The notes: generated by a model not told the origin, from the sequence alone. Counted from the first letter of the stretch, positions 10,578-44,947 are shown. The stretch: DNA of 64,000 bases from Eubacteriales bacterium (GCA_045594085.1 JAZNXW010000020.1:5768-69767), one strand, 5' to 3'. Numbers and translations: made by a program.

Positions 10578-10622
10578 TCCGACGGTTGCAGTAAAACGAA
10601 AAACACCGAAAGGATCATCATC

Positions 10623-11513: not shown

Positions 11514-11548
11514 AAGCGTCATATATATAAGAAAAGGAATCATATTTT

Positions 11549-12292: not shown

Positions 12293-12317
12293 CAAATAAA
12301 CGAAAAGAGTTATTTAT

Positions 12318-13298: not shown

Positions 13299-13328
13299 TT
13301 TAGTCAATTGTAGAAAGTTATTTTCGAT

Positions 13329-20955: not shown

Positions 20956-21293
20956 GGAATCGAACCCCTGTCCGAAAACCCATCCACTTCACTTTCTACG
21001 GGCGTAGATCACCTACGTTATCTCCCGTCTCCCGCGCGGATGATCGCGCTCGGGAGGCGGCAGCACTTTAATGCGTGGTCGTTTCAAGTGCGAAAACGCG
21101 ACTCACGTGCACCACGGTAGTCACGCCCGCACCGAGGTCGTGGTCCCCCTCGGTGAAGACGCGCCGCACTTAGGCAGCGAGAGCTAAATCGTCGTTAGCG
21201 TTTAATTTTAAAATAGGGCCGGATTAAAGAGCTTTCCCCATGCTCTGCCCGCTTATGAAACTTCAAGATCCCCGTCGAAACCTTTACGCCCCC
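20945..21293 (-). ncRNA. ssrA: tmRNA (SsrA)
   Basis: The minus-strand 5' end is GGGGGCGTAAAGGTTTCGACGGGGATC and the 3' end is GGGGTTCGATTCCCCTCGCCTCCA. The internal tag frame ...GCT AAC GAC GAT TTA GCT CTC GCT GCC TAA encodes ...ANDDLALAA. smpB is nearby. Confidence 0.93.
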
Positions 21294-21318
21294 GTATATG
21301 AACGGGGCGAACACCCCG

Positions 21319-21996: not shown

Positions 21997-22001
21997 AGTC
22001 T

Positions 22002-22484
22002 TTACTCCGCGTATTTACCGCGTCCCTTGACGTAACGCTCCATCGTACGCTCCGCGTTACGCTTTGCGTCGTCGTCGCGCTTATCGTAGAGCTTTTTACC
22101 CTTACAAAGACCGACCTTCATCTTCACTCTCGAGCCCGAAAAATACAGTGACAGCGGGATGAGGGTATATCCGTCTTGAGTGACCTTGCCGAACAGCTTA
22201 TTGATCTCACGCTTGTGCATCAGGAGCTTTTTCGGACGAAGCGGATCGCGATTGAATATATTTCCCTTTTCATAGGGACTTATATGAAACCCATACGCGA
22301 AAAGCTCGCCGCCCTCGATGCGGCAGTACGAATCCTTGAGATTGGTCTTACCTTCACGGAGACTTTTGACCTCCGTGCCGAAAAGTGCGATCCCCGCTTC
22401 GTATGTGTCTTCTATGAAATATTCGTGGCGTGCGGCGCGGTTTTCCGCAATCTGCTTGCCGTCCGTTTTCTTCTTTTCTGCCAC
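22002..22484 (-). CDS. smpB: SsrA-binding protein SmpB
   Basis: 160-aa ORF with IAENRAARHEYFIEDTYEAGIALFGTEVKSLR... and a basic C-terminal tail, which is canonical for SmpB. Confidence 0.95.
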   Translation of the reverse strand: MAEKKKTDGKQIAENRAARHEYFIEDTYEAGIALFGTEVKSLREGKTNLKDSYCRIEGGELFAYGFHISPYEKGNIFNRDPLRPKKLLMHKREINKLFGKVTQDGYTLIPLSLYFSGSRVKMKVGLCKGKKLYDKRDDDAKRNAERTMERYVKGRGKYAE

Positions 22485-29303: not shown

Positions 29304-29488
29304 AGTCTCTCTCCGCTTAATATAATTTCGCCGGATAACGATATTAATACAATTATATATCAAGGGCAAGTCAAATACAAGACAAAATTAATGTTTTTTG
29401 TGATATATTACCGTAGTTGTTGCAATTTAACGCACTTTTATGGTATGATATATACGAAACTGTACAAGTGCGCATCAAGGAGGTCTTT

Positions 29489-31834
29489 ATGAGAAAAACG
29501 ATTGATCTTAAAAGCTGGAAATTCAAGCTCGGTCACGTTTCGGACGGTTGGTATCGAGGCGGCGACGAACGCGGATGGGAAGACGTTCGCATACCGCACG
29601 ACTGGGCAATAAGCCGCGGATTTTCGAAGGAAAATTCAAGCGGCACAGGCTACGTCATCGGCGGCGAAGGCTGGTACCGCACACGCTTTTACTGCAAGCC
29701 CGAACAGGGACAGCGTGTACGTATCACCTTCTACGGAGTCTACAACAACTCCAAGGTATGGTGTAACTCCAACTATCTCGGCAAGCGCCCCTTCGGATAC
29801 AGCACGTTCACTTACGACATAACCGAATTTCTCGCCCCCGACGGTGACAACGAGATAAGCGTTCAGGTGCTCCACACCGAAACCGCAGATTCGCGTTGGT
29901 ATACGGGTTCGGGTATCACGCGTCCCGTCACCGTAACAGTTACCGGCGAGCCTTACATAGATGATTTCGGCGTATTCGTCACAACACCCGAGGTGTCGGC
30001 GGACGCCGCGGTTATAAACGTCAAAACCGCCACCGTCGGCAGCGGTGAGATCAAAAACACCATCATCAACGCAGACGGCAACGTCGTTGCCGTGCTCAGC
30101 GGTGCGGACGCATCCGTAACCCTTCCCTCTCCCGAGCTTTGGGAGTTCGGTCACCCGTATCTGTACACGCTCAAAACCGAAATTTTCGCAAACGGAACGG
30201 TCACGGACTGCACCGAAACCAAATTCGGCATCCGCAGTCTCCGTTTCGATCCTGACCACGGCTTCTTCTGCAACGGAAAGCACACTAAGCTCCGCGGAGT
30301 ATGTCTGCATCACGACGCGGGCGCACTCGGTGCCGCCGTTCCGAAGGAGGTTTGGAGACGCAGACTCACAAACATTATGAAATGCGGCACGAATGCCGTA
30401 CGTACGAGCCACAATCCGCCCGATACAACGCTTCTGGACCTCTGCGACGAGCTCGGTCTTTACGTTATGGACGAGGCGTTCGACGAATGGGAAGCCCCGA
30501 AGAACAAGTGGTGGCAGGGACATAACGTCCGTCCGCCCAAGCTCAACGGCTATTACGAGGACTTCATCGAATGGGGGGAGCGTGACCTCAAGACGATGGT
30601 GCTTCGCGACCGCAATCACCCGTGTGTCATTATGTGGAGCGTCGGCAACGAGGTCGATTACCCGAACGATCCGTACGTTTATTCGGGATTCGATATGATG
30701 ACAGGCAACAACGACGCAGGCAAGAGCGAGGATGAACGCCGTTACGACGTAAACCGTCCCGACGCGCACCGACTGACAGAGATCGCAAAGCGTCTCGTCG
30801 GCTGGGTAAAGGACGTTGACAAGTCCCGTCCCGTTACGTCAGCGCTTGCATATCCCGAAATGTCAGTGCGCATCGGCTATATGCAGGCACTCGACGTTGC
30901 AGGCTACAACTACAAAGAACAGTTTTATGAAGAGCATCACCGCGAGTTCCCGAATGCCTTCATTTACGGATCCGAAAACAGCCACAGTGCCGAGGCGTGG
31001 GAGGCTGTGCGCGATCACGAATACATTTGCGGTCAGTTCCTTTGGACAGGCATCGACTACCTCGGTGAAGCACAGGGCTGGCCCGTGCGCGGCTTCGGTG
31101 CAGGTCTGCTTGACCTCGCGGGATTTGAGACGATGCGCTTCTATCAGCGAGAAATGATGTGGACGGACTGCATATCAGGCGTTCTTCACACCTTCTATCC
31201 GCCAAAAAACCGTCCGTCACGCCATCCTGAACGCGGTCCGCGTGTTCCCGAGGCATTCTGCTTCACAAACGGCGCTTCCGCTGAGCTTTTCTGCGGCGGA
31301 CGCTCTCTCGGAGTTATGACTCCCGAGCATTATATGTGCCGTTGGAACATTGAAAATGAGTCTTCCGACGCCGAGTTCAAGGCTGTAATCACATCCGCGG
31401 ACGGAATTTCCGTTGACGTATACCGTGCATCCTCGGGCGCGCCCGCGTCTATGACAGCGATTCCGTGGGATTCCACCTTCTGCGGCGATGTTTATACAGT
31501 AACCGACGAGGTATGCCAGCTCGAGATCCGTCTTTATGACAGGGACGGCGCGCCCGTCGTTAATGCGGCTCGCGGCGGAATGTGGGGACCTCAGCCCGAA
31601 ATAAAGGATCCGCATCGCCCCGACGTCAGAGTCACCGTTATCGGCGGAGAATTTATGGCAATGGAAAACGCCGACATCCGCGATCTTACCTCCTACAGCG
31701 AGCATCACAGAACAGTCAACAACGGACGCTTGCTCGTCTACGTGCGCGGAGAAAGCGGCAAAACGGCGGAGATCCATCTTGATCTGCCCGATCTGCCTGA
31801 GCTTTCGCGCACGGTAAAAGTACGCTTCGATTAA
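29489..31834 (+). CDS. Glycoside hydrolase family 2 (beta-galactosidase/beta-glucuronidase-like)
   Basis: The start is taken at ATG 29489 after AAGGAGG. It has NAVRTSHNPP and the acid/base motif MWSVGNE, with the sugar-binding / Ig-like / TIM-barrel order typical of GH2. Confidence 0.88.
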   Translation: MRKTIDLKSWKFKLGHVSDGWYRGGDERGWEDVRIPHDWAISRGFSKENSSGTGYVIGGEGWYRTRFYCKPEQGQRVRITFYGVYNNSKVWCNSNYLGKRPFGYSTFTYDITEFLAPDGDNEISVQVLHTETADSRWYTGSGITRPVTVTVTGEPYIDDFGVFVTTPEVSADAAVINVKTATVGSGEIKNTIINADGNVVAVLSGADASVTLPSPELWEFGHPYLYTLKTEIFANGTVTDCTETKFGIRSLRFDPDHGFFCNGKHTKLRGVCLHHDAGALGAAVPKEVWRRRLTNIMKCGTNAVRTSHNPPDTTLLDLCDELGLYVMDEAFDEWEAPKNKWWQGHNVRPPKLNGYYEDFIEWGERDLKTMVLRDRNHPCVIMWSVGNEVDYPNDPYVYSGFDMMTGNNDAGKSEDERRYDVNRPDAHRLTEIAKRLVGWVKDVDKSRPVTSALAYPEMSVRIGYMQALDVAGYNYKEQFYEEHHREFPNAFIYGSENSHSAEAWEAVRDHEYICGQFLWTGIDYLGEAQGWPVRGFGAGLLDLAGFETMRFYQREMMWTDCISGVLHTFYPPKNRPSRHPERGPRVPEAFCFTNGASAELFCGGRSLGVMTPEHYMCRWNIENESSDAEFKAVITSADGISVDVYRASSGAPASMTAIPWDSTFCGDVYTVTDEVCQLEIRLYDRDGAPVVNAARGGMWGPQPEIKDPHRPDVRVTVIGGEFMAMENADIRDLTSYSEHHRTVNNGRLLVYVRGESGKTAEIHLDLPDLPELSRTVKVRFD

Positions 31835-31851
31835 AGTAAAGGAAACACAAC

Positions 31852-32277
31852 GTGAGCTTCAAATACACCCCCGATTTTCTCTCCGACATCAAATATGTCG
31901 CCATCTTTGCGCGTTACCGCGGAAAATGGATATACTGCTATCACAAGCGCCGCGGCAGCTATGAGCATCCCGGCGGTCATGTTGAGCGCGGAGAAACGGC
32001 AATTGATGCCGCAAAGCGCGAGCTGTACGAGGAAACGGGCGTGACGGATGCTGTCATCAAGCCCGTTTGGGATTACGTTCACGTTTTCCCGAACGGCAAA
32101 CACAGGCACAACGGACGCGTATATTTTGCCGAGGTCACATCGATCGGGGAGCTTCCCGAAACGAGTGAGATGGACCACATAATCCTATCGGACACGGTTC
32201 CCGACAATTTTACATACGACACCGACATCGAAGCATCCGATATCATTTCGGTCAAACGAATGATGAAAATTGAATAA
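31852..32277 (+). CDS. NUDIX hydrolase
   Basis: 141-aa ORF with a GTG start and the Nudix box GGHVERGETAIDAAKRELYEETG. Confidence 0.88.
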   Translation: MSFKYTPDFLSDIKYVAIFARYRGKWIYCYHKRRGSYEHPGGHVERGETAIDAAKRELYEETGVTDAVIKPVWDYVHVFPNGKHRHNGRVYFAEVTSIGELPETSEMDHIILSDTVPDNFTYDTDIEASDIISVKRMMKIE

Positions 32278-32278
32278 C

Positions 32279-32311
32279 AAAAAAACGCTGAGCGTGCGCT
32301 CAGCGTTTTTT
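32279..32311. terminator. Bidirectional terminator
   Basis: AAAAAAA, then CGCTGAGCG-TG-CGCTCAGCG, then TTTTTT. Confidence 0.85.
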
Positions 32312-32316
32312 CATAT

Positions 32317-33171
32317 TTATTCACTCCCCACCCAAACATCCTTTCCGTCGGATGAGACCGTCACGCTTTTGCCGAAATCTGTTCTCCCCACCGTCACTCC
32401 GTGGCTGTCGAGGCGTGAGATCACCTCCGAATGAGGATGACCGTAATCATTGTCCTGTCCGCACGAGATAACGGCTATAACGGGACGTACACACTCCAAA
32501 AACGCTTCCGAAGTTGCGGTATTTGATCCGTGATGACCGACCTTGAGCACGTCCGCCTCCAAAAGATTGCCTGCCTTTTCGACAAGACGCGTCTCCGCTT
32601 CGCCCTCGCAGTCACCTGTAAACAAAAACGAGGCCTCCCCATACGTAAGCTTGGCGATGACGGAATCAAGATTTGCGTCGCCCGTCAGTTCAAACGGCGC
32701 GAGCACGTCGAGCGTCAACTCACCAAACGCAAACGAGTCGCCTGACGTCGCCTCGAAAACCGTGATTCCCGCGGCCGTTACCGCATCGACAAGATCAAGA
32801 TAGCATCTGTCGTCAGAATCCGAGTCGGGCATCACGATGCATCCGACCTCAAACCGCTCTGCGACAAGATCGGCTCCGCCTATGTGATCCTCGTGCGGAT
32901 GCGAAAGCACCATGCAGTCGATTTTTTCGATCCCGAGCCGGTCAAGATACGCAGCAAGCTTCTCCTCGCTTTCGTTTGTGCCCGCATCGAATAGGATCAT
33001 GACGTCATTAAGGACGGCAAGCGCCGCATCGCCTTGACCGACGTTGAAATAGTACACTGTCAAAACGCCGTCGTCGGCATTTGCGGCGAAGCGATCTTCC
33101 TCGCACGCGCACAAAATCAGCACAGCGGCGATCAAAAGAGCCAAAACGGCATTTCTCACGTTCATAATCAC
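32317..33171 (-). CDS. Exported MBL-fold metallo-hydrolase (ComEC C-terminal-domain-like)
   Basis: 284-aa ORF with a lipoprotein-type signal (LILCAC), the HPHEDHIGG (HxHxDH) motif and a later VGHHGS. Confidence 0.8.
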   Translation of the reverse strand: MIMNVRNAVLALLIAAVLILCACEEDRFAANADDGVLTVYYFNVGQGDAALAVLNDVMILFDAGTNESEEKLAAYLDRLGIEKIDCMVLSHPHEDHIGGADLVAERFEVGCIVMPDSDSDDRCYLDLVDAVTAAGITVFEATSGDSFAFGELTLDVLAPFELTGDANLDSVIAKLTYGEASFLFTGDCEGEAETRLVEKAGNLLEADVLKVGHHGSNTATSEAFLECVRPVIAVISCGQDNDYGHPHSEVISRLDSHGVTVGRTDFGKSVTVSSDGKDVWVGSE

Positions 33172-33220
33172 CTCATAAAGAACACGGGAAAAGGCTCATA
33201 TACGCCTTTTCCCGTCTTTA

Positions 33221-33867: not shown

Positions 33868-34536
33868 TCATATATATTCGATTTTCGGGGTAATATCCGC
33901 AAAACAGGCAGGCACAGCGAACGCGATTGCGTATTCTTCGCCGTCAGAGCCCGTTACGGTAAAGGTGCGAAGAGCGCACGGGAGATTCCGCGCCTCTGTA
34001 TCGACGGAGACGAGCGGACGTGTAATCCCCTCGCCCGTATATTTGAGATACGCTTCTTTTTTCGTCCACATAGCGTAAAATTCCGCCACAGGATCGCGTG
34101 AGGAGTCGATTTTTGCCGTCTCCGCATCAGTGAATGCGCGGCGCATTATGCGATTTTTCCTGTCTTCTCCGCGTGAACGGTCGATCCGCTCAACGTCAAT
34201 GCCGACCTCGCCCTCCGCGTCTGTTGCGACGATCCCGACCGCAAGCATTCCGCTGTGACTGACGTTGAAGGTAACGTCACTTCGATCGGTCAAATACGGC
34301 TTACCGTGACGCCCGAGCGCGATCGTTTCGCCCTCCACCGAAGCGTCAAGCAGAAGCGATCCGCGCACGTAATCACCGAGAATGATCTCGCGCCGTCTTT
34401 TTTCGTTTACGCAGCCCGAAAGTTTTTCGCTCGCGTAATCCGAAGGCTTGAACTCGCGCTCCGCGGCTGTCGCCGCGTCCGCGATCTTTATCAGTATCAA
34501 ATTATTCCTCGCACATATAAGGATATTCGACCGCAT
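33868..34536 (-). CDS. 4'-phosphopantetheinyl transferase (Sfp-type)
   Basis: GKPYL...FNVSHSG...GIDVERI...WTKKEAYLKYTGEG motifs. The annotated ATG overlaps the pruA 3' end by 35 nt, so the true start may lie slightly downstream. Confidence 0.8.
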   Translation of the reverse strand: MRSNILICARNNLILIKIADAATAAEREFKPSDYASEKLSGCVNEKRRREIILGDYVRGSLLLDASVEGETIALGRHGKPYLTDRSDVTFNVSHSGMLAVGIVATDAEGEVGIDVERIDRSRGEDRKNRIMRRAFTDAETAKIDSSRDPVAEFYAMWTKKEAYLKYTGEGITRPLVSVDTEARNLPCALRTFTVTGSDGEEYAIAFAVPACFADITPKIEYI

Positions 34537-36130
34537 AAATCGGCACGAAATTTTCCTTGATGCATCGCGGGCTTACCCAACGGTAGAGGTTGAGCGCGCT
34601 TCCCGCCTTGTCGTTCGTGCCGGAGGCTCTTCCGCCGCCGAACGGCTGCTGCCCCACTACGGCACCGGTAGGCTTATCGTTGATGTAGAAGTTACCTGCC
34701 GTGTTGGTGAGCGCCTTTTCCATATGCTGAATTACGGAACGCTCTCTCGCAAAGATCGCGCCGGTAAGTCCGTAGGGAGACGCGGTATCGCAGATCTTGA
34801 GTGTTTCATCGAGCTTATCGTCATCGTAAACGTAAACGGTGAGGACGGGTCCGAATATCTCCTTGACCATAGATTCATAATCGGGAGTTTTCGCCTCTAT
34901 AAGCGTGGGATATACGAAATATCCGACGGAATCGTCATAATGACCGAAGACTACCTCTGCATCCTCGGATGCATTTGCACGATCTATGTAGCCCTTGATA
35001 TTTTCGAAGGAATTTCTGTCGATGACAGCGCCCATAAACGTGGAGAAGTCAGCAACGTCGCCAACCTTGAGGCGCTTAACGATATCGGACACCTTTTCCT
35101 TGACCTCGCTCCAGATGGACGCGGGAACAAACGCACGGGATGCGGCGGAGCATTTCTGCCCCTGATACTCATACGCACCTCTTACCATAGCTGCCGCGAG
35201 TGCATCAACGTCTGCTGATGCGTGCGCAAAGATGAAGTCCTTTCCGCCCGTCTCGCCTACGAGACGCGGATAAGATTCGTAATTCTTGATGTTTTCGCTA
35301 ACTGTCTTCCAAACACCGGAGAAAACCTCTGTGGAGCCGGTGAAGTGGAATCCCGCCATCTTGGGATGCGTGAGGATATACTTGCTGACCTCGGATCCGC
35401 GGCAAGGAATGAAGTTGATAACGCCTTCGGGAAGTCCCGCTTCGCGGAGGACCTCCATAATAACGTAGTTCGAGAGAACTGCCGTAGAGGAAGGCTTCCA
35501 GAGGACTGTATTGCCCATAATCGCAGGTGCGCAGGGGAGATTTCCGCCGATCGAGGTAAAGTTGAAGGGCGAGATAGCCATTACAAAGCCGTCAAGAGGA
35601 CGGTATTCAACTCTGTTCCAGACTCCTCTTGTGCTGTTCGGCTGCTGCTGATAGATAGTCTCGGCACAGTGCACGTTGAAGCGGAAGAAATCCGCGAGCT
35701 CACAAGCGGAATCGATCTCTGCCTGGAAAACGGTCTTACTCTGACCGAGCATCGTTGCGGCATTGATCTTGTCGCGGTAAGGCCCTGCGATAAGATCTCC
35801 CGCCTTAAGGAAGATCGCGGCGCGGTGCTCCCACGAGATCTTGTCCCACTCTGCCTTTGCGGCGATAGCGGCGTCTACTGCGGCAAGAAGCTCGTCTTTT
35901 CCCGCAACGCAATAGCGCGCGAGGACGTGCTTATGATTATGAGGCATAACGATCTGTGCATATGTATCTGTGTAAACTTCCTTTCCGCCGATGATGAGCG
36001 GTATTGTAACCACCTCTGCGGACTGACGTGCAAGCTCCGCTTTGAGGCTTGCTCTTTCGGGGGAACCGGGCAGATAGCCCTTGATGGGTTCATTCTGAGG
36101 GGCAGGTACGGAAAAGATTCCGGATTTCAT
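34502..36130 (-). CDS. pruA: L-glutamate gamma-semialdehyde (1-pyrroline-5-carboxylate) dehydrogenase
   Basis: 542-aa aldehyde dehydrogenase with ETGGKDF and catalytic Cys in GQKCSAASR. The N-terminal SVPAPQNEPIKGYLPGSPER is typical of PruA/RocA. Confidence 0.88.
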   Translation of the reverse strand: MKSGIFSVPAPQNEPIKGYLPGSPERASLKAELARQSAEVVTIPLIIGGKEVYTDTYAQIVMPHNHKHVLARYCVAGKDELLAAVDAAIAAKAEWDKISWEHRAAIFLKAGDLIAGPYRDKINAATMLGQSKTVFQAEIDSACELADFFRFNVHCAETIYQQQPNSTRGVWNRVEYRPLDGFVMAISPFNFTSIGGNLPCAPAIMGNTVLWKPSSTAVLSNYVIMEVLREAGLPEGVINFIPCRGSEVSKYILTHPKMAGFHFTGSTEVFSGVWKTVSENIKNYESYPRLVGETGGKDFIFAHASADVDALAAAMVRGAYEYQGQKCSAASRAFVPASIWSEVKEKVSDIVKRLKVGDVADFSTFMGAVIDRNSFENIKGYIDRANASEDAEVVFGHYDDSVGYFVYPTLIEAKTPDYESMVKEIFGPVLTVYVYDDDKLDETLKICDTASPYGLTGAIFARERSVIQHMEKALTNTAGNFYINDKPTGAVVGQQPFGGGRASGTNDKAGSALNLYRWVSPRCIKENFVPIYAVEYPYMCEE

Positions 36131-36173: not shown

Positions 36174-36749
36174 TCAGAACCGCATTTCGGCAAATCCCGT
36201 CAGTATCATCGCGATGATACCCGCGGTAACGAGCAGGATCGGTATTCCCCTCATCGGCGATGGCAGATTTGCCTTGATGATCCTTTCCTTGATGCTTACA
36301 AAAAGCGCAAACGAAAGGATGACGCTCACGGTTGCCAGAAGCGACGCGGTCAAAGCGTCGGTGAGTCCCGCCGTGCTGACGGCAGACTCGTAAATGATGC
36401 CGGCGCTTGCCGTATTCACGGCAAAAACGGGTGCAAGCAGCTTCAGCTCCGCGTAAACGTCGGGTTTCAGCCTATGCAGTGCTAAAAGCATACCGCTCAT
36501 AACGAAAAACGTCACTATCGGTATAATAATTATAAGCGTATCTCGCGGATTTGGCAAGACGTATCGGGCGGTCAAAACAACAATTATCTCCGAAATCAAG
36601 GTTGAAATGAAGAAAAACAAGCCCGATATGCCCATTTTACGCACGTCATCGGTGAGCTTGTCCAGTTCATCGGCACCGTACATAGACACAAAAAGCGCAT
36701 TTTCCGCAAGCAATACAGTATAAAGCGTTATGAGAAGGTCAACGGTCAT
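36174..36749 (-). CDS. RnfA-like membrane subunit (divergent, cysteine-free)
   Basis: 191-aa ORF with six hydrophobic helices. The C-terminal KERIIKANLPSPMRGIPILLVTAGIIAMILTGF matches the RnfA/NqrE pattern (RERL..a.vP..f.G.pi.LitAGlmalaF.GF). The RBS is GGAGGTG. Confidence 0.7.
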   Translation of the reverse strand: MTVDLLITLYTVLLAENALFVSMYGADELDKLTDDVRKMGISGLFFFISTLISEIIVVLTARYVLPNPRDTLIIIIPIVTFFVMSGMLLALHRLKPDVYAELKLLAPVFAVNTASAGIIYESAVSTAGLTDALTASLLATVSVILSFALFVSIKERIIKANLPSPMRGIPILLVTAGIIAMILTGFAEMRF

Positions 36750-37332
36750 CTTCCGTCACCTCCTTTGATCTCTGTTCCTTTCGTTCCGCTATAGAAACGA
36801 AAATAAAATTGACAGCCGCGACGGTAAATCCGATCAGGATCAGCGTCACGGAGGGCGATGCCGCAAACGGAACGTAACAGCCAATCGCAAAACGCACGAA
36901 CGCAAGTACTGTCAGAATAAGTGCATACATCAGCGATGTAAGCGTTGCACGCACCACGGAGTGCGCGATCTGCTCGTCCTTTTTCGGCACACACGAAAGC
37001 ACGATTCCGCTGACAGCGGCAACAAGAAGCGACGTTGCGAGCGTATCTGCCGTTTCCGTCACAAAACGAGATGCCGCGGACGCGCCTGCAGCCATCACTC
37101 CCGACGAAACGGTAATATAAACGGTCCACACTCCGAAGCGTCCCGACACAAGCGATGTAAACGCCGCCGCGGTCGATGCCAAAACAACAGCGATCAAAAC
37201 CAAGCCCGCGCAAATAACGGCATTTTTTACATCAGCCGTTGCAATAACGGCGGCACAGACGCCTCCCGTAGCGAAAAACAGCACGTTTTTCTCTATCAGA
37301 GTCTCTCGAAGGAGCTTTTTCATATCCGTCAC
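36739..37332 (-). CDS. RnfE-like membrane subunit (divergent)
   Basis: 197-aa ORF with a GTG start overlapping the upstream stop (GTGA). It is polytopic, sits in the rnfE position between the G-position gene and the rnfA-like gene, and begins with KNVLFFATGGVCAAV, resembling NN..l.q.LGLCP. Confidence 0.6.
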   Translation of the reverse strand: MTDMKKLLRETLIEKNVLFFATGGVCAAVIATADVKNAVICAGLVLIAVVLASTAAAFTSLVSGRFGVWTVYITVSSGVMAAGASAASRFVTETADTLATSLLVAAVSGIVLSCVPKKDEQIAHSVVRATLTSLMYALILTVLAFVRFAIGCYVPFAASPSVTLILIGFTVAAVNFIFVSIAERKEQRSKEVTEDDR

Positions 37333-38126
37333 GGTGCCACCTCACTTTGATCGGCAGCGCCCGTCGTTTCTTCAACGGGTGTGGTGTCATCGGACGTTGT
37401 ATCATCGGATGTTGTGTCGTCGGACGTTGTGTCGTCGGACGTTGTGTCGTCGGACGTTGTATCGTCGGACGTTGTATCGTCGGACGTTGTATCGTCGGAC
37501 GTTGTATCGTCGGACGTTGTGTCATCGGACGTTGTATCGTCGGACGTTGTGTCATCGGACGTTGTGTCGTCGGACGTTGTGTCATCGGACGTTGTATCGT
37601 CGGACGTTGTGTCATCGGACGTTGTATCGTCGGACGTTGTGTCGTCGGATGTGGTGTCGTCGGGGTCAGGCTCGGGCCAGAATTCCTCCGGTGCACGCTC
37701 GATCGTCGTTTCGTATGTTGTTGTTTCTTCCGGATCCGTTATGCCGAGTTTTCCTCCTGCTGACAGCTTTTTTGTGTCCTCGGGATCTTTTTTGTCCGTT
37801 GTCTCGTCATCGGAGGTGTCACTTGACACTTCGTCGGATGTATCATCCGACGTATCCGTTTGAGTATCACCTTCGGTTTCCGTATCGGATTCGGGCGGCG
37901 CAGACGTATCGGCAGAGGGGTCTGACTCTGAATTGTCTACAGACACGGAATCCTCCGTGTCGGGGCGCGGCGTATTCGTTTCACCGCTGTCCGTAACACC
38001 CGGTACAGAATCCTCACCCGTATCATACGCGGCAAATCCCGATGCGATGACCGTTATCACCAGCATGATCGCCGCGACGGCGGAGGGAATCGCCACCGAA
38101 AGTATCTTTTTTGATTTTTCGTTCAT
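37329..38126 (-). CDS. Membrane-anchored, highly acidic D/T/S/E-rich repeat protein in the rnfG position (no FMN-binding domain recognisable)
   Basis: 265-aa ORF with a single N-terminal TM helix (ILSVAIPSAVAAIMLVITVIASGFAAY), an acidic low-complexity region, then 18 x DDTTS plus DDTTP. Its start overlaps the rnfD stop (ATGA) and it has RBS GGAGGTG. Confidence 0.75.
   Translation of the reverse strand: MNEKSKKILSVAIPSAVAAIMLVITVIASGFAAYDTGEDSVPGVTDSGETNTPRPDTEDSVSVDNSESDPSADTSAPPESDTETEGDTQTDTSDDTSDEVSSDTSDDETTDKKDPEDTKKLSAGGKLGITDPEETTTYETTIERAPEEFWPEPDPDDTTSDDTTSDDTTSDDTTSDDTTSDDTTSDDTTSDDTTSDDTTSDDTTSDDTTSDDTTSDDTTSDDTTSDDTTSDDTTSDDTTSDDTTSDDTTPVEETTGAADQSEVAP
37377..37661. repeat. Tandem repeat, 15-bp unit x 19 (GGACGTTGTRTCRTC on the plus strand), encoding DDTTS on the minus strand
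   Basis: The period was counted directly from the sequence. The only variation between units is at synonymous third-codon positions (G/A, C/T), plus the terminal DDTTP unit. Confidence 0.95.
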
Positions 38127-39127
38127 TCCGACACCTCCGTTTCTTCGGATGTGTCTTTTGAAACATCAGCGGCCGCATGTGCATCACGCCTGCTTCCGCC
38201 GAAGCGCGCGGGAGTCGTGATCTTATCAATGACTCCGACGAAAAGGTTCGCCAAAAGAACCGCGTAAGCAACTCCCTCGGGAGCCGATCCGTAGTATCTC
38301 AAAAGCACTGTAACAGCACCGATCAAAGCACCGTAAATCAGCTTTCCGAAAGGACGCATCGGGGAGGTGACCGGATCTGTCGCCATAAAGAATGCGACAA
38401 GGAACAGACCGCCTGACGTAAGCTCTGCGAGCACAAACATCATTCCGCTTGCATTTTGCGAGAAGAACACTGTCAGCGCCGCAACGCTTCCGATGACAGC
38501 GATTGGGATCTGCCAGCCGATTATGCCGCGGACAAGCAGATAAATACCTCCGATCAGTATCAGAACCGTCGATATCTCTCCGATCGATCCGGCAGAGTTA
38601 CCGACGAGCATATCGTAAAGTGAGGTCTCCGGCAGCAGTCCCTCTTTCAAGGACACGAGCGGAGTTGCGCCCGTCACTGCGTCGGTAAAGGGGACCGCCG
38701 AAAGTGCAAGCTTTTCAGGGAAAGCGAGCTTCAAGAAGACGTAGCCCGCGAGAGCGGGATTTACAAAATTTCCGCCGAGTCCGCCGAATGTGCACTTGAC
38801 TACGCCGACGGCAAAAACAGCGCCGACAGCGGGAATGTACAGCGGAACTGTCACAGGGAGAGCGAGCGCGAGCAGAAGTCCCGTAACTACAGCCGAAAGG
38901 TCAAGCACAGTGATGTACTTTTTCGTCACAAACGTGATGATCGTTTCCGTCAGCACGGACGCGAGCACCGACACTGCAATGATGGAAAGCGCACGTGCAC
39001 CAAACGCGTACACGCCCCACAAAACAACCGGCAACAGCGCTATTATTACGTCCGCCATTATGTTTCTGACGTTATCGGGATGCTTTATATAAGGAGCGCG
39101 CTTAATGGAGGGGGCGGTAACGTTCAT
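38123..39127 (-). CDS. rnfD: RnfD/NqrB-family membrane subunit
   Basis: 334-aa polytopic ORF with the DAVTGATPL (S/TGAT flavinylation-type) motif, GSIGEIS and FFMATDPVTSP, all typical of RnfD. The start overlaps the rnfC stop (ATGA). Confidence 0.88.
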   Translation of the reverse strand: MNVTAPSIKRAPYIKHPDNVRNIMADVIIALLPVVLWGVYAFGARALSIIAVSVLASVLTETIITFVTKKYITVLDLSAVVTGLLLALALPVTVPLYIPAVGAVFAVGVVKCTFGGLGGNFVNPALAGYVFLKLAFPEKLALSAVPFTDAVTGATPLVSLKEGLLPETSLYDMLVGNSAGSIGEISTVLILIGGIYLLVRGIIGWQIPIAVIGSVAALTVFFSQNASGMMFVLAELTSGGLFLVAFFMATDPVTSPMRPFGKLIYGALIGAVTVLLRYYGSAPEGVAYAVLLANLFVGVIDKITTPARFGGSRRDAHAAADVSKDTSEETEVSE

Positions 39128-40443
39128 TCCTTCACCTCCGAAGCGGATTCTGCGGCATCAAGCTTGATTCTGCGTATGTATTCCGTGATCGGGACCTTGC
39201 CGGGACAAACGTACGCGCACGAACCGCATTCCTCGCACAAAAGTGCGCCGTTTTTGATAGCTTTTTCATATTTTTCCTCAACCGACAGCTTATAAAGCGT
39301 ACTCGGCACGAGTCTCATCGGGCAAACGGAAACGCATCTTCCGCAGCGTATGCACGCCGCAGGCTCGGGATAGCGGTCCGTCTCCTTTTCCGTGAAAAGA
39401 AGAAGTGCCGATGTCGTCTTTGTAACGACGCCTTCGAGATTTTCCATCTCGATTCCCGTCATAGGACCGCCCTCGATGATGCGCACGGGCTCGGAGGTCA
39501 CGCCGCCCGCAAAGGCAACGAGATCCGAAAACGGAGTTCCGATCGGCACCATGACGTTTTTCGTTTCCTTGACAGCGCTTCCGCCGACAGTCACGGCGAC
39601 TGCCGTATACGGCACACCTGACGCAAAGGCGGAGAAAATATTCGCCGCTGATGACGCGCTGAAAATGACAGCTCCCGCATCGAGAGGAGTCTTCCCTTCG
39701 CCAAGCTCACGCCCCATTACGGCATATATCAGCTCTCGCGGAGCCCCCGCCGGATATTTCGCCCTCACGGGAGTGACCGTGACAAGCTTATCCTTACGCG
39801 TAAGCGCGACCAGCTTTTTTATGAGTTCGGTTTTATTTTCACCGACAGCAATGACTCCACGGCGAAGCTTGAGTGCCTTGAGTATGATTTTAAGTCCGTT
39901 AACAACGGCTACAGGATTCTCAAGCGCGATCCTGTATCCGCCCGCAACGTATGGCTCATCGAAAACGCAGTTTACAATGCAGTATTCCGCGCGCTCGGTC
40001 GAGTCTCGCAGCAAGAGATGCGAGGGCGTTCCGTCCGGCTCGCACACACCGGAATTACGAACAGCGGAGATGATTTCGTCAGGCTCGCAGTCCGCGAGCT
40101 TTTTTTCGCATTTTTCAACTGCCGTTGAAAGCGTATACTGCATATCGTTCGCGATCTCGACAAAGAGTGTGCGCCTGCCGTCGGGCAAGATCGTTTCATC
40201 GACAGCGGTAACGGTGCCGGAAACAGGTGTGTGCACCGCAATTGCGTCATCGTTTGCGGGCGCACCGATAATGTCACCTCGCAAAACGTGCATACCGACC
40301 TCTGCTGTCGGAATTGCCGGCTTACCCTTTGACTGAAGCATAGGTATGCGTAAACGCTTTGGAGGATCTATGCGCTCCGTTTTTGCATTTTGCGTTTTTT
40401 TATTGTCACTGAAATATATACCGCCGCGAAAAACGTACGCCAT
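39124..40443 (-). CDS. rnfC: RnfC-like subunit (two 4Fe-4S motifs retained; nucleotide/FMN loop apparently degenerate)
   Basis: The start is taken at ATG 40443 (MAYVFRGGIYF, RBS GGAGGTG). The longer track ORF would run into the tRNA promoter. It has an RnfC N-terminal barrel region (IPMLQSKGKPA...VHTPVSGTV), GGPMTG, CIRCGRCVSVCP and CEECGSCAYVCP. Confidence 0.85.
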   Translation of the reverse strand: MAYVFRGGIYFSDNKKTQNAKTERIDPPKRLRIPMLQSKGKPAIPTAEVGMHVLRGDIIGAPANDDAIAVHTPVSGTVTAVDETILPDGRRTLFVEIANDMQYTLSTAVEKCEKKLADCEPDEIISAVRNSGVCEPDGTPSHLLLRDSTERAEYCIVNCVFDEPYVAGGYRIALENPVAVVNGLKIILKALKLRRGVIAVGENKTELIKKLVALTRKDKLVTVTPVRAKYPAGAPRELIYAVMGRELGEGKTPLDAGAVIFSASSAANIFSAFASGVPYTAVAVTVGGSAVKETKNVMVPIGTPFSDLVAFAGGVTSEPVRIIEGGPMTGIEMENLEGVVTKTTSALLLFTEKETDRYPEPAACIRCGRCVSVCPMRLVPSTLYKLSVEEKYEKAIKNGALLCEECGSCAYVCPGKVPITEYIRRIKLDAAESASEVKE

Positions 40444-40615
40444 TATAAACACCTCCATAAAGCAGTATCCCATCCTCCTTTTTATTATATAATATCGGAG
40501 CGTTTTTTTCAAGTGTTTCATAAAAACAGCCATATTGATTATAATAGTGACATGAAAGGCAAAAATGCGTCGAAAAATTTTCGGATAAAAAATTTTATTT
40601 TTTGAAAAATAGGTG

Positions 40616-40750: not shown

Positions 40751-40822
40751 GGCCCGTTGGTCAAGCGGTTAAGACACCGCCCTTTCACGGCGGTAACACG
40801 AGTTCGATTCTCGTACGGGTCA
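40751..40822 (+). tRNA. tRNA-Glu (anticodon TTC)
   Basis: GGCCCGTTGGTCAAGCGGTTAAGACACCGCCCTTTCACGGCGGTAACACGAGTTCGATTCTCGTACGGGTCA. The anticodon loop is CTTTCAC. It is close to my recollection of the Bacillus-type tRNA-Glu sequence (unverified). Confidence 0.92.
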
Positions 40823-40861
40823 AAAAAATAGAGCCCCCAATTTTGGGGCTCTATTTTTTTA
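40822..40861 (+). terminator. Terminator of the tRNA operon
   Basis: ATAGAGCCCC-N7-GGGGCTCTAT followed by TTTTTTT. Confidence 0.85.
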
Positions 40862-40964: not shown

Positions 40965-41019
40965 CGATATCTCGTACGGGTCAAAAAATAGAGCCCCCTG
41001 ATTGGGGGCTCTATTTTTT
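40965..41019. repeat. Imperfect direct repeat of the tRNA-Glu 3' end plus its terminator (copy B of 40805-40860); also works as terminator for the convergent oxidoreductase gene
   Basis: CGATATCTCGTACGGGTCAAAAAATAGAGCCCCCTGATTGGGGGCTCTATTTTTT compared with CGATTCTCGTACGGGTCAAAAAAATAGAGCCCCCAATTTTGGGGCTCTATTTTTTT. Confidence 0.85.
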
Positions 41020-41048: not shown

Positions 41049-42161
41049 TCAGTCAAGGATGCCGTGAACGCAGGATCTGTTCATGATCGGCGTCTTGTCA
41101 AATCGCGACATGATCTCAATGTGACGGTTTTCCTCGCTGCTCTTTGTGAAGCTTTCCATTATCTCAAGAACGTGATAGGTCATATCTACGTTTGCACGGA
41201 AGCCTCTGCCCGTCCTGAGCGCTTTTGCCATATCCGCAAGACCCAACGCGCGGCTGTTGTCTTTATAATCAAACGTGAGAGGAATCTCTCGGACCGTTCC
41301 ATCTTCGGGACGGAGAAGCTTGATGGGACCACCGAACGTATTGGGATCGGGCACGAAAAGAGTGCCCTCGGAGCCGTAAATCTCAAGTCTCGCCTGGTAG
41401 GGATAGTGAACGTCGAAGGTCGTAAAGAGCGTGCCTATTACGCCGCCCTCAAACTGCATCGTTCCCGTGATATACGTGGGTACGTCAACGTCCACGACCT
41501 CACCGAAATGAGGTCTGCTTGTGATCGTTCTTGTGGGGAAGCTCTTTTTCGTCATCGCGGAAACGCTTTCGACATTGCCGAGCAGGTTCACGAGAGCTGT
41601 GAGGTAGTACGGTCCCATATCGAACATAGGTCCGCCGCCGTACTTATAATAGAACTCGGGATCAGGATGCCACGATTCGTGTCCGCGGCATATCATAAAG
41701 CCCGCAGCACCGACGGGAGTGCCTATATATCCATCCTCAATTAGCTTGCGGCAGGTCTGTATGCCTGCTCCGAGGAAGGTGTCGGGCGCGCCGCCGAGCA
41801 TAAGTCCCAGCTTTTTGCTGAGCTCGATAAGCTCTGTTCCTTCGTGGAGAGATGCCGCCAGGGGCTTTTCCGAATAAACGTGCTTGCCCGCAAGGAGCGC
41901 CGCCTTGGTTACGTCGTAATGCTCGTAGGGGCGGGTGAGATTGAGGACGATATCGACCTCAGGATCGGCGAAAAGCTGATACATATCATCATAAAGCTTC
42001 GGGATCGGGTAATTCGCAACTGCGTTCTCGGCGCGCTCACGGATAAGGTCGCAAACGCCGATTATCTCGATCTCCTTGAACGTTTCCGTTATGTTTTTCA
42101 GATATATTCCGCTGATGGCGCCAACGCCGACTATGCCTATCTTTACTGTATCCATAATCAC
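41049..42161 (-). CDS. Gfo/Idh/MocA family oxidoreductase
   Basis: 370-aa ORF with an N-terminal Rossmann motif VKIGIVGVGAISG and the typical EKPLA motif (YSEKPLA). Confidence 0.88.
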   Translation of the reverse strand: MIMDTVKIGIVGVGAISGIYLKNITETFKEIEIIGVCDLIRERAENAVANYPIPKLYDDMYQLFADPEVDIVLNLTRPYEHYDVTKAALLAGKHVYSEKPLAASLHEGTELIELSKKLGLMLGGAPDTFLGAGIQTCRKLIEDGYIGTPVGAAGFMICRGHESWHPDPEFYYKYGGGPMFDMGPYYLTALVNLLGNVESVSAMTKKSFPTRTITSRPHFGEVVDVDVPTYITGTMQFEGGVIGTLFTTFDVHYPYQARLEIYGSEGTLFVPDPNTFGGPIKLLRPEDGTVREIPLTFDYKDNSRALGLADMAKALRTGRGFRANVDMTYHVLEIMESFTKSSEENRHIEIMSRFDKTPIMNRSCVHGILD

Positions 42162-42185
42162 TGTCTCCTTTTTCGGAACGTTGGA

Positions 42186-42908
42186 TCAATACATTTTTGC
42201 ATTGTTCTGGAAGCGATCGGTGGTGAGACCGTTATCGATCGCGTACTGCTTGCCCTCTGCTGCCCATTTCATGCCTCGACGCATAATCACCTCCGCATTG
42301 GGAGACTTGTCGAAAACGTCGTCGTGATGACCGAGGGACGTGTAGAAGACTCTGCCGTTGCCCCAGAATTTTGTCCATGCGACGGGCATATCAACGACCT
42401 TATTTGAAATGTGATAGTAATTGACAAGCGGGAAACGTGTGGTGGCAAGCACCTCAATGGCAGGGTCGATGTGCAGATAATAGTGCTCGCTGCACACCTC
42501 AAAGTCCTCCAGCCCCTCTGTGATGGGACTTGATCCGTGATTGATGTTTACCGTGTAGTTTTGTCCGTCGCCTCCGGGATGGCTCACCCACTGACCGCCG
42601 GTGATGAACTGCCATTCCGTATTCTGGCGGAAGGAATCGCACATACCGCCGTGACAGCCCGCAAGTCCCGTTCCCTTGCCTATCGCATAGGAAAGGTTCT
42701 GCACGTAATGCCACGGAAGATCACCCATTGTCCAGCACGCCACGATCAGATCGTATTCCGCAAGCTTTTCGCGGTCCGCAAGGCAGTCGAGCGTGTCGTA
42801 TATTTCCGCCTCGTAGCCCTCTTCGCGCATAATGCGGGCAAAACGGGCAGACGTCAGCTTGGGCTCGTGTCCATCCCAGCCGCCTTGAAAGATCAATACT
42901 TTTTTCAT
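42186..42908 (-). CDS. ThuA-domain protein (trehalose-utilisation-like, class I glutamine amidotransferase-like fold)
   Basis: 240-aa ORF with KVLIFQGGWDGHEP... and HHD...; the layout is typical of ThuA family proteins. Confidence 0.75.
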   Translation of the reverse strand: MKKVLIFQGGWDGHEPKLTSARFARIMREEGYEAEIYDTLDCLADREKLAEYDLIVACWTMGDLPWHYVQNLSYAIGKGTGLAGCHGGMCDSFRQNTEWQFITGGQWVSHPGGDGQNYTVNINHGSSPITEGLEDFEVCSEHYYLHIDPAIEVLATTRFPLVNYYHISNKVVDMPVAWTKFWGNGRVFYTSLGHHDDVFDKSPNAEVIMRRGMKWAAEGKQYAIDNGLTTDRFQNNAKMY

Positions 42909-42945
42909 TGTGTTCCTCCTTGATATTTTTCAGTGTATTTTACGG

Positions 42946-44004
42946 TCAAATATAACAGGAAACGGCTCCGCCGTTTTCAGCAGATGCGAACACCATATCA
43001 ATGATATTCATAACGCGCAGGCACTGCTCGGGCTTGACGATCAGCTCCTCCGTGCCGTTCAGCACGCCGACAATGTTTTTGTAATATTCGCTCCAATCAG
43101 GTCTTTCGTCCGGCAGGTCGAGCACAGACGTGGTATGCGCGGGACGGGGCGCCATCGTTCTCGTCGGTCCCGCGGAGGTATAAACGATGTCATCCTCCCA
43201 CTGCATTGCTTCCGCATTTTCCGCAAGCTTCACAATGCGGCCCTTGCAGTCCCAGTTTTCAACCACAGCCGTTCCCGCCGTGCAGGATACGTGCCAACGC
43301 GGATGGTTAACAAAGCAGTTTGTGGAGAATTCCATTATTGCGGAGACGTCGTTTTCAAACCGTATCATCAGCTTTACGTTGTCGTCAACGTCGCCGGAGA
43401 ATACGGTCTTGAGATGTCCCGAAACAGACACGACCTTTGAAGGAACGAGGAAAAGAAGCTGGTCGAGAAGATGAACGCCCCAGTCCAGAAGCATTCCTCC
43501 GCCGTTTTCCTTATACCCCCTCCAGCCGAACATAGCGCCTCTTGAGCCCTGAACACGTGATTCAATGAAATAAGGCTCGCCGATGACCTTGCTTTCGAGG
43601 ACCTTTTTTACGATTCTGTAGTCTCTGTCCCAGCGTCGATTCTGATGCACCGTGAAAAGCTTTCCCGTTTCCGCCGCAACAGTCATGATCTCCTCTAACT
43701 CGGCGGAATTCATCGTTACAGGCTTTTCACACACAACATTCTTGCCCGCTCGGAGCGCTTTTATTGCATAATCCTTGTGAAAATTATTGGGGACCGCAAT
43801 AGTAACTATGTCAATTGCGGGATCTGACAAAAGCTCCTCCGCGGAGCCGTAGGAATAAAGTCCGTTTGCTTCGATTTTTTCTTTGATTTCAGGGCGAATA
43901 TCGTACGCGCCCGTCACATTGATCTCGGGTACGTTCGCCTTTAACGATGAGTGGTGCCAACCGCCCATGCCGCCGTATCCGATCAGTGCAAGATTATATT
44001 TCAT
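42946..44004 (-). CDS. Gfo/Idh/MocA family oxidoreductase
   Basis: The start is taken at ATG 44004 (MKYNLALIGYGGMGGWH, RBS AGGAAGGTGA). It has the CEKPV motif. Confidence 0.88.
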   Translation of the reverse strand: MKYNLALIGYGGMGGWHHSSLKANVPEINVTGAYDIRPEIKEKIEANGLYSYGSAEELLSDPAIDIVTIAVPNNFHKDYAIKALRAGKNVVCEKPVTMNSAELEEIMTVAAETGKLFTVHQNRRWDRDYRIVKKVLESKVIGEPYFIESRVQGSRGAMFGWRGYKENGGGMLLDWGVHLLDQLLFLVPSKVVSVSGHLKTVFSGDVDDNVKLMIRFENDVSAIMEFSTNCFVNHPRWHVSCTAGTAVVENWDCKGRIVKLAENAEAMQWEDDIVYTSAGPTRTMAPRPAHTTSVLDLPDERPDWSEYYKNIVGVLNGTEELIVKPEQCLRVMNIIDMVFASAENGGAVSCYI

Positions 44005-44146
44005 ACAAATTTCACCTTCCTTTCGGCTGTTTCCTTGTTGACATTGTACCATTTGATGGTATATAATGTCTAACAAATAAAGCTCACAACACTACTCAAT
44101 TATTGCTCTGTTTCGCATCACGAAAATCAGACGCAAGGGAGATGCC

Positions 44147-44947
44147 ATGCCACTGCCTTTTCACGAAACAAAAACGAAGCCCGAAGCCTGGACAACCTCA
44201 AAAATTGACTTTCCTCCTCATCTTCACGGATGTCCGGAACTCGTTTACGTCAGCTCAGGTGCGCTCACTGTCTGCATCGACTCAAAGGAATATACTCTTC
44301 AAAAGGGTGATCTTGCCGTTATTCTGCCGAACATCATTCATTCGTATCAGTCCGTATCGCCATCCGAGGAAACGGAGATTTACTTTATGATATGCGGCAA
44401 GCTTTCGCAGAACGCTTTGCTGAAAAAATATGCGGGAGCTTACGTTGAAAATCCCGTTTCGCCCATTGAGTCATTCCATCCCGATGTCGGGTATATGTTT
44501 TTTGCGCTTTACGAGGAGATAACGGAATCGCCCTCCTCTCACATAATCGACAACTATTTTCAGCTTTTGTGGATGAGACTTCTTCCCTCTCTTCGCGTAT
44601 CAAGCCGATCCCGTGAGCCCGCATCAGACCTTGCCGTTTCGTCGCTCATTTATATTTCGGAGCATTTCCGTGAGCCGATCACACTTGATGTGCTTTCGCG
44701 CGAGCTCGGAATCTGCAGATTTTATCTGTCACGCATTTTTTCTCACGTGCTACACGTTGGCTTCTGCGAATACGTCAACACGCTTCGCATCAACTACTCA
44801 AAAGAGCTTTTGCTTTCGTCCGATCTCGGCATCCTTGACATCGGAATGCGATCGGGATTCCAAAGTCAGCAAAGCTTCAACCGTGTTTTCAAGGAGATGT
44901 GCGGAACAACGCCTGCAGCTTACAGAAAAAGATCCTCCGGCCGTTGA
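44147..44947 (+). CDS. AraC-family transcriptional regulator (cupin sensor plus HTH_18)
   Basis: 266-aa ORF with an N-terminal cupin-like PPHLHGCPELVYV and a C-terminal AraC HTH (GFQSQQSFNRVFKEMCGTTPAAYRK). It is divergent from the oxidoreductase/ThuA operon. Confidence 0.9.
   Translation: MPLPFHETKTKPEAWTTSKIDFPPHLHGCPELVYVSSGALTVCIDSKEYTLQKGDLAVILPNIIHSYQSVSPSEETEIYFMICGKLSQNALLKKYAGAYVENPVSPIESFHPDVGYMFFALYEEITESPSSHIIDNYFQLLWMRLLPSLRVSSRSREPASDLAVSSLIYISEHFREPITLDVLSRELGICRFYLSRIFSHVLHVGFCEYVNTLRINYSKELLLSSDLGILDIGMRSGFQSQQSFNRVFKEMCGTTPAAYRKRSSGR

Follow-up and report, generated by a model that had tools for sequence, protein, structure and literature searches.

An rnf-like operon without rnfB and with a predicted loss of most Rnf cofactor sites in a Eubacteriales bacterium

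Layout of the rnf-like operon and of related loci

We analysed a 64,000-nucleotide (nt) stretch of DNA from a Eubacteriales bacterium (GCA_045594085.1 JAZNXW010000020.1:5768-69767), referred to below as the window, in which positions 36174-40443 of the minus strand carry a five-gene cluster related to the rnf operon. The list of open reading frames (ORFs) and the sequence itself give the order rnfC-rnfD-X-rnfE-rnfA, where X denotes the gene in the rnfG position. The genes, primed here where they resemble rnf genes, are rnfC' (39124-40443, 439 aa), rnfD' (38123-39127, 334 aa), X (37329-38126, 265 aa), rnfE' (36739-37332, 197 aa) and rnfA' (36174-36749, 191 aa), all with an ATG start apart from the GTG of rnfE'; the start of rnfC' is fixed because MAYVFRGG opens RnfC' in every relative. 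Consecutive genes overlap by 4, 4, 4 and 11 nt (ATGA at 39124-39127, ATGA at 38123-38126, GTGA at 37329-37332, and 36739-36749, respectively). GGAGGTG precedes the starts of C, D, X and A, and GAGGTGG precedes that of E. A preliminary description of this DNA had reported five translationally coupled genes with these overlaps, ribosome-binding sites of the GGAGGTG type, the order C-D-[G]-E-A and a pruA gene 43 bp beyond the rnfA-like gene; the ORF list, the minus-strand sequence and the family matches agree with it on all of these points, a ribosome-binding site being found at every start. The five proteins are translationally coupled and therefore probably assemble together.

The same five intact ORFs with the same overlaps occur in seven related assemblies besides the window, which come from different assemblers (L007-L013; the window family). 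pruA directly abuts rnfA' in L014, a more distant locus, and in all window-family loci long enough to show it, and therefore rnfB was not lost at a contig break. A survey of relatives showed that the B-less C-D-X-E-A layout recurs in two more distant Firmicute lineages. L014, from the Firmicutes metagenome-assembled genome (MAG) GCA_021205025.1, carries C-D-X(313 aa)-E-A and, beyond it, pruA, ACPS and cmk-like genes as in the window, and in L016 a C-D-X(496 aa)-E-A cluster adjoins dnaA and dnaN. In an AT-rich metagenome contig (L015:5312-9217) RnfD continues into a fused Lys/Glu-rich low-complexity stretch of about 570 residues and is followed by cysteine-less E- and A-like genes. Neither rnfB nor FMN_bind was found at the L014, L015 and L016 loci.

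Cofactor sites kept and lost

The structures of Rnf show flavin mononucleotide (FMN) on a threonine of RnfD, riboflavin on an Asn and an Asp of RnfD and a NuoF-like FMN/NADH site in RnfC; the membrane [2Fe-2S] cluster is held by four invariant cysteines, C25 and C113 of RnfA and C25/26 and C108/109 of RnfE (PMC9588780, PMC11889175). The Clostridium tetanomorphum (7ZC6) and Acetobacterium woodii (9ERI) complexes served as structural references. RnfA' matches the Pfam family Rnf-Nqr with 36 bits, and a profile of nine RnfA' family members aligns end to end with A. woodii RnfA (9eri_A) at E 2e-12. RnfA' contains no cysteine at all, and D27 and T113 occupy the columns of the ligands Cys25 and Cys113. 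D27 opens a D27-E-L-D-x-L-T-x-D35 motif (36645-36671, minus strand; HMMER alignment of FLGICPFLG with lyGideldk), in which G25 just upstream, D27, E28, L29, L32, T33 and D35 are invariant in 9 sequences. The Cys25-to-Asp change is common to L014 and L016, and DELDxLTxD is invariant in the window family only. By alignment, the RnfA residues of the A. woodii Na+ path (E88, T110, T111 and Y105) are not kept in RnfA'.

RnfE' is matched by Pfam Rnf-Nqr with 26.4 bits (cut-off 23.8) and weakly by NqrD (E 0.004). Its structure was modelled with AlphaFold2 from 10 sequences at low confidence (predicted local distance difference test, pLDDT, 58), and only the identity of the top fold matches was used: 15 of the first 17 in the PDB are NqrD, RnfE, NqrE or RnfA, with template-modelling (TM) scores mostly of 0.5-0.6. 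A comparison of the E' and A' profiles by hhalign was not significant (probability 1.5%). The first ligand position of RnfE' is Cys in the window sequence only and Ala or Ser in nine relatives, and the second is Gly. None of the four [2Fe-2S] cysteines of canonical RnfA/RnfE is thus conserved.

RnfC' scores 339 bits against TIGR01945 (cut-off 246), contains the Pfam domains RnfC_N, Complex1_51K, SLBB and Fer4, and aligns over nearly its whole length with C. tetanomorphum RnfC (7zc6_C; E 1e-70). The C-terminal ferredoxin domain is present, as seen from Pfam Fer4 and from two CxxCxxCxxxCP [4Fe-4S] motifs at residues 364-375 and 403-414 (39202-39354, minus strand; regular-expression matches at 39354 and 39237), which read CIRCGRCVSVCP and CEECGSCAYVCP. 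The window family, L014 and L016, three divergent lineages, share all eight of these cysteines without exception. The four NuoF-type FMN/NADH motifs are invariant in RnfC of 7zc6 and 9eri and of two proteobacterial loci, L017 and L018, and they are replaced in all seven family members: GxGGAxFPT has become CEPDGT--PS, NxAECEPY has become NCVFDEPY, YPxGxE[KR]QLI has become YPAGxxRELI and QNV[GD]T has become FSAxS. The altered FMN/NADH-loop region (residues 112-159; 39967-40110, minus strand) carries new invariant cysteines. C112, C119, C134 and C159 are found in 7/7 family members and are absent from the aligned 7zc6 and 9eri sequences; C155 is likewise invariant in the family, but A. woodii RnfC also has a Cys there. 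The window family shows the greatest change in this loop, L014 a degraded form and L016 an almost canonical one.

RnfD' is well conserved. It scores 348 bits against PF03116 and 276 bits against TIGR01946 (cut-off 207), and it aligns over its full length with 7zc6_D (E 3e-68). Its TGAT motif (residues 152-155; 38663-38674, minus strand) lies opposite the TTAT motif (Thr153) of 7zc6_D, and T155 falls in the column of the FMN-bearing threonine, which is Thr153 in C. tetanomorphum RnfD and Thr156 in A. woodii RnfD. This threonine is present in 7/7 window-family members. RnfD' also keeps NPAL and FMATD, with the riboflavin-ligand residues, and E185, and N90 is changed to Ala. By sequence, the FMN threonine and the riboflavin-binding Asn and Asp are all in place. 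The N-terminal arm of RnfD', which docks into RnfC, resembles the canonical arm. A separate observation concerns residue 112 of RnfD' (38792-38794), where canonical VVKQ(F/C)FGG is replaced in the window family and L014 by VVKC(T/A)FGG; the Gln-to-Cys change is conserved and adjoins the GGLG motif.

The protein in the RnfG slot, X, has no match to a Pfam family even at E<=10 and no meaningful NCBIfam match. The features of canonical RnfG, an FMN_bind domain and a flavinylated threonine, are not found in it, by Pfam and by search for the [ST]GA[ST] flavinylation motif, respectively. A Lys-rich N-terminus and one hydrophobic helix (residues 5-36) are followed by a 232-residue remainder of net charge -74, and AlphaFold2 applied to the first 160 residues as a single sequence gave one helix (residues 3-32) and otherwise coil. 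The positive-inside rule predicts an extracellular acidic tail, in line with the location of the RnfG domain. X may descend from RnfG, to judge by its position and topology. The preliminary description had taken the protein for a transmembrane (TM) anchor plus acidic low-complexity sequence with no FMN_bind domain; the absence of the domain stands, but the rest was too narrow, since a motif of about 35 residues is kept in all seven family members. It is K-L-S-A-G-G-K-L-G-I-T-D-P-E-E-T-T-T-Y-E-T-T-I-E-R-A-P-E-E-F-W-P-E in the window (residues ~119-152; 37671-37772, minus strand), with the consensus K-L-S-A-G-x-K-L-x-I-x-D-P..E-T-T-T-Y-E-T-T-[IV]-[ED]-R-A-P-E-x-x-W-P-E, and is the only conserved block outside the TM helix, amid variable acidic repeats; its ERAPE..WP part is nearly invariant across the seven members.

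Downstream of this motif, a 15-nt tandem repeat of 18.7 copies encodes (TTSDD)n (37384-37663; Tandem Repeats Finder score 441, 91% matches), and X contains 18 exact TTSDD copies. Metagenome contigs of the same species (L001-L006, L019) end at or within this array, and short-read assemblies therefore leave its copy number unresolved. Relatives have other acidic repeats at the same place, such as TD repeats in L007 and DTTPA in L013, and the array seems to turn over quickly. Acidic low-complexity tails are also found on X of L014 and L016. X ends in a conserved Glu-Val, and the codons of these two residues form the Shine-Dalgarno sequence of the gene that follows. An FMN_bind remnant in X of L014 and L016, suspected by eye (VIVGVNGEGSVVGVNI...), gave nothing by Pfam at E<=10 or by phmmer against the PDB.

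The missing functions were also sought elsewhere in the window. A six-frame search of the 64 kb found the CxxCxxCxxxC motif only twice, both times in RnfC', and no rnfB-type motif. Pfam scans, together with precomputed Pfam annotation for 25911-33171, covered the called ORFs of the window with the exception of two short ones, and among the ORFs scanned there was no Fer4/FeS polyferredoxin, FMN_bind or NqrF-like protein. The RnfB polyferredoxin, which is the ferredoxin entry site, is thus missing from the window, and rnfB was not found in the loci of the relatives. The absence of rnfB after rnfA, as first described, therefore extends to the whole 64 kb, whether as a fused or a nearby gene, and the D, A and E proteins all match Rnf/Nqr families. 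L017 and L018, which are rsx loci and were retrieved in the same way, show RnfB and FMN_bind, and therefore the absences elsewhere are no annotation artefact.

The two proteobacterial loci are of some interest in themselves. L017:1-8669 and L018:3810-8678 are Steroidobacter-type rsxA-B-C-D-G-E-nth operons with RnfB and an FMN_bind RnfG. Their RnfA has TNS for TNC and both of its [2Fe-2S] cysteines are missing; their RnfE has VNI and the second is missing. These loci were rejected as controls for the A/E ligands and are valid as controls for annotation and for the RnfC motifs. They may represent a second, independent kind of cysteine-poor Rnf, in Proteobacteria. In L017 a 1324-aa ORF without any Pfam domain lies between rnfC and rnfD.

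Selection, distribution and genomic surroundings

Pairwise dN/dS (nonsynonymous to synonymous substitution rates) against the window is about 0.1 for C' and D', 0.15-0.33 for E' and A', 0.2-0.4 for the alignable N-terminal half of X and about 0.03 for pruA; dS is near saturation (about 1-2), which makes these values approximate though all are far below 1. There are also newly conserved features, namely DELDxLTxD of RnfA', the cysteine patch of RnfC' and the motif of X. By these measures the operon is not decaying, and selection appears to maintain it in a small set of uncultured Clostridia of the gut type. Database searches show the family to be rare: 5.8 billion proteins, searched by word index, yielded about ten members for each of A' and E', and an exhaustive HMMER run with the E' profile against 1.84 billion representative proteins returned one cluster at E<=1e-30 and 18 weaker matches, some of them other RnfE-like proteins poor in cysteine. 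Among 185,579 species genomes scanned by pattern, three MAGs matched; their depositors, whose taxonomic labels are used here, call them 'uncultured Lachnospiraceae'. JGI (Joint Genome Institute) metagenomes gave zero matches with the family alignments of RnfC' and RnfA'; an alignment that mixed distant RnfA' proteins had too much divergence for metagenome scanning.

A promoter-like site, TTGAAA-17-TATAAT (40484-40512, minus strand; a pattern match at 11 of 12 consensus positions), lies 41 nt upstream of the rnfC' start, in a 230-bp AT-rich spacer between rnfC' and a divergent tRNA-Met gene. On the other side, pruA (34502-36130, minus strand; TIGR01236, 800 bits), for L-glutamate gamma-semialdehyde dehydrogenase, begins 43 nt downstream of the rnfA' stop, and a hairpin scan of the gap revealed no terminator-like site. 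The first strong terminator-like hairpin on that strand, a pattern match with a 12-bp stem and 7 GC pairs (33184-33215, minus strand), stands 3' of a cytidylate-kinase-like gene. With none earlier, the five genes are probably co-transcribed with pruA and the two genes after it. A functional link between the rnf-like genes and pruA was considered and set aside: unrelated genes further downstream are equally conserved, and L016 has no pruA adjacency. Inherited synteny would explain the neighbourhood of pruA as well as a functional link would.

The remainder of the window contains several features of independent interest. On the rnfC' side two tRNA genes point away from the operon, and just after this tRNA-Met/tRNA-Glu pair two near-identical hairpins with 16-bp stems (AAAAAATAGAGCCCCC...GGGGGCTCTATTTTTT) lie 160 nt apart at 40822-40860 and 40983-41019; a duplicated terminator or a small palindromic repeat may be the explanation. 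Two GFO/IDH/MocA oxidoreductases and a ThuA-like protein, with a divergent AraC-type regulator, follow at 41049-44947, in what looks like a sugar-oxidation module unrelated to the rnf-like operon. At 10326-14633 an operon of dapA, dapB, diaminopimelate dehydrogenase and a lysA-like decarboxylase is immediately preceded by a lysine riboswitch (Rfam RF00168, 63 bits). At 20942-22484 there is a tmRNA (tag ANDDLALAA) near smpB, with a zinc-dependent phospholipase-C-like gene between them. Cation-linked transporters are encoded at 24038-25606 (sodium:solute symporter family protein), 4939-7887 (TrkH/TrkA) and 55227-57839 (P-type cation ATPase); the first is possibly a proline carrier, given pruA.

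Interpretation and comparison with known systems

Electrons in canonical Rnf pass from ferredoxin through RnfB, the [2Fe-2S] cluster of RnfA/RnfE, the FMN of RnfG, the FMN of RnfD, riboflavin, the [4Fe-4S] clusters of RnfC and the FMN of RnfC to NAD+. The electron sites shown in the canonical structures (PMC9588780, PMC11889175) were used to compare this route with the cluster. The first three stations (RnfB, the A/E [2Fe-2S] cluster and the FMN of G) and the last (the FMN/NADH site of RnfC) appear to be gone, and the segment that remains would run from the RnfC [4Fe-4S] clusters through riboflavin to the FMN of RnfD, together with the RnfD arm that docks into RnfC. It had been argued at the outset that the cluster cannot work as a standard Rnf and may be a repurposed or degenerate derivative. 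The first claim holds, given the absent RnfB and FMN_bind and the lost A/E and RnfC motifs, and the second is strengthened by losses that had gone unrecognised, namely those of the A/E [2Fe-2S] cysteines, the RnfC FMN/NADH motifs and several RnfA Na+-path residues. The roles first suggested for it, as a scaffold, an ion channel or a partner for a different redox module, are hypothetical, and so is its status as a paralogue. We concluded that the cluster encodes a lineage-specific and, as predicted from its motifs, cofactor-depleted derivative of Rnf, for which ferredoxin:NAD+ oxidoreduction by the canonical U-shaped path is almost certainly excluded. With moderate confidence, we further read it as a selected, non-canonical Rnf derivative that retains only a C-D redox stub.

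How such a stub might work can be proposed tentatively, as a model that we hold to be somewhat short of probable. The complex would form a short linear one-electron wire, in which a cytoplasmic low-potential donor, for example ferredoxin, would feed the iron-sulfur centres of RnfC', possibly including a new Cys4 metal site in place of the FMN; riboflavin would take up the electrons and hand them to the FMN of RnfD', which faces outward, and RnfA', RnfE' and X would make up a remodelled structural or cation-handling shell. A more far-reaching proposal joins all of these elements and is speculative enough that we think it unlikely as a whole: the cluster would encode a new class of Rnf/Nqr-derived machine, independent of the rnf-to-nqr transition, with a Cys4 metal or iron-sulfur centre replacing the RnfC FMN/NADH site, a linear conduit to an outer covalent FMN, and a carboxylate-lined A'/E' pair and a polyanionic tether that handle cations. 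If this were true, half of the electron loop (RnfB, the A/E [2Fe-2S] cluster and the FMN of G) would have been deleted, and a Gram-positive cell would expose a covalent FMN outward.

Several points weigh against a retained redox stub. The losses and retentions of cofactors are read from sequence motifs alone, and the clustering of C112, C119, C134 and C159 into one site is putative. ApbE, which is needed for flavinylation of RnfD, was not found within the 64-kb window. In the alignment the RnfD threonine is lost in L014, L016 and L015, and at the L015 locus there is no RnfC, RnfB or RnfG; the threonine losses and the missing RnfC suggest that the wider clade may share a function other than a redox one. 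The near-saturated dS noted above tempers the argument from selection, and dN of C' and D' is 0.09-0.23 compared with 0.02-0.07 for pruA and the cmk-like genes and with 0.02-0.05 for pruA by itself, a several-fold faster rate than that of the neighbours, which indicates that constraint on C' and D' is relaxed.

The strongest alternative, which we regard as possible but rather unlikely, is a redox-dead complex reused as a cation channel, secondary transporter or membrane scaffold. The A'/E' hourglass would then carry fixed carboxylates in place of the cluster, the tail of X would gather cations outside the cell, and the RnfC' clusters would be structural only. In A. woodii Rnf the RnfA/RnfE hourglass binds Na+ beside the reduced [2Fe-2S] cluster, and Na+ passes RnfA/E driven by the negative charge of that cluster (PMC11889175). 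The exchange of RnfA Cys25 for Asp in three lineages and the invariance of DELDxLTxD within the window family fit this proposal, as do the strongly negative ectodomain of X, the acidic X tails of L014 and L016, the threonine losses just mentioned and the persistence of D-E-A without RnfC in L015. On the other hand, the canonical Na+-path residues of RnfA are not kept, the eight iron-sulfur cysteines that are invariant across deep divergence and the new RnfC' cysteines go beyond structural need, and every window-family member keeps the RnfD threonine; the transport role would itself be deduced from sequence.

The rate difference and the rarity of the family (19 distant matches among the 1.84 billion representatives, 3 of the 185,579 species genomes and none in the JGI metagenomes) might point instead to a decaying relic nearing pseudogenisation, or to an assembly artefact that dropped rnfB. 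This is very improbable, because the five intact ORFs and their overlaps are conserved in seven assemblies from different assemblers, dN/dS is well below 1 in every gene, and the new invariant motifs represent gain as well as loss. Least credible of all is a canonical Rnf with RnfB and RnfG encoded elsewhere and supplied in trans: the absence of rnfB is established for the 64-kb window and the position of rnfB varies among taxa (PMC4014512), but B and G cannot restore the lost A'/E' [2Fe-2S] ligands or the RnfC' FMN/NADH motifs, and the G slot is already filled by a conserved, coupled gene.

A selected Rnf derivative with a C-D redox stub has practical consequences for annotation. Pipelines annotate the first two genes as RnfC and RnfD, and metabolic reconstructions would credit gut-type Clostridia MAGs with Rnf-based energy conservation, which is almost certainly beyond this complex. 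Five subunits under purifying selection without most of the cofactor sites may also reveal which parts of Rnf/Nqr serve beyond electron transfer; concrete leads here are the Asp in the place of a membrane iron-sulfur ligand and the cysteine patch where a flavin site used to be.

No description of a B-less, cysteine-less C-D-X-E-A cluster was found in the literature searched. The cluster was compared with known systems. PrdC, the RnfC-like electron-transfer protein of proline reductase, is likewise an RnfC homologue outside canonical Rnf in a neighbourhood of proline metabolism (here pruA). In contrast to PrdC, RnfC' is co-encoded with RnfD, RnfE and RnfA homologues and reaches only 121 bits against TIGR04481 (cut-off 490), and there are no prd genes in the window. 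A two-subunit Nqr/Rnf-like complex consists of an RnfD-like domain fused to a PF00175 NAD-binding domain and a flavinylated RnfG/NqrC-like subunit; its D-like part has no threonine, and electrons have been proposed to cross it in a linear route, from the cytoplasmic side to the outer face (Huang et al., 2024; PMC11334425, and an earlier survey of flavinylation cited there). That complex and the cluster are both simplified Rnf/Nqr cores that left the U-shaped path. They differ in that the cluster has five subunits, an RnfC-type cytoplasmic subunit, no flavinylated G and a D subunit that keeps the threonine, RnfD' being a 334-aa protein with PF03116 only and without an FMN_bind partner.

The cluster shares with Rnf (RnfCDGEAB) the C-D-G-E-A order with translational coupling, scores above the NCBIfam cut-offs for C' and D', the RnfA/RnfE fold of A' and E', the two [4Fe-4S] motifs in C, the flavinylation threonine and riboflavin ligands in D, and a G-slot protein with an N-terminal membrane anchor and a remainder predicted outside the cell. 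Unlike Rnf, it has no RnfB, no FMN domain in the G slot, no conserved [2Fe-2S] cysteines and no RnfA Na+-path residues; a cysteine-rich patch replaces the FMN/NADH motifs of RnfC, and the G-slot protein ends in a polyanionic repeat tail. With four defining features apparently lost, we would not class the cluster as an Rnf complex.

Na+-NQR (NqrABCDEF) has been proposed to descend from a duplicate of the rnf operon in which rnfB was lost (Reyes-Prieto et al., 2014; PMC4014512). The cluster, as an rnfCDGEA-type operon without rnfB in which RnfC' lost the FMN/NADH site as NqrA did, is a natural example of an rnf operon after this proposed first step. The outcome differs from that in NQR, since here the cofactor sites were stripped and no new input module was recruited. 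An NqrF-like FAD/[2Fe-2S] input subunit was found in neither the operon nor the window, and scores against the nqrA, B, D and E equivalog models are far below the cut-offs. Furthermore, NQR retains the cluster cysteines in NqrD/E and the FMN in NqrC, whereas both are lost here, and RnfC' keeps the [4Fe-4S] motifs that NqrA does not have. By analogy, the cluster resembles the postulated first steps from rnf to nqr, which would have arisen independently in Firmicutes.

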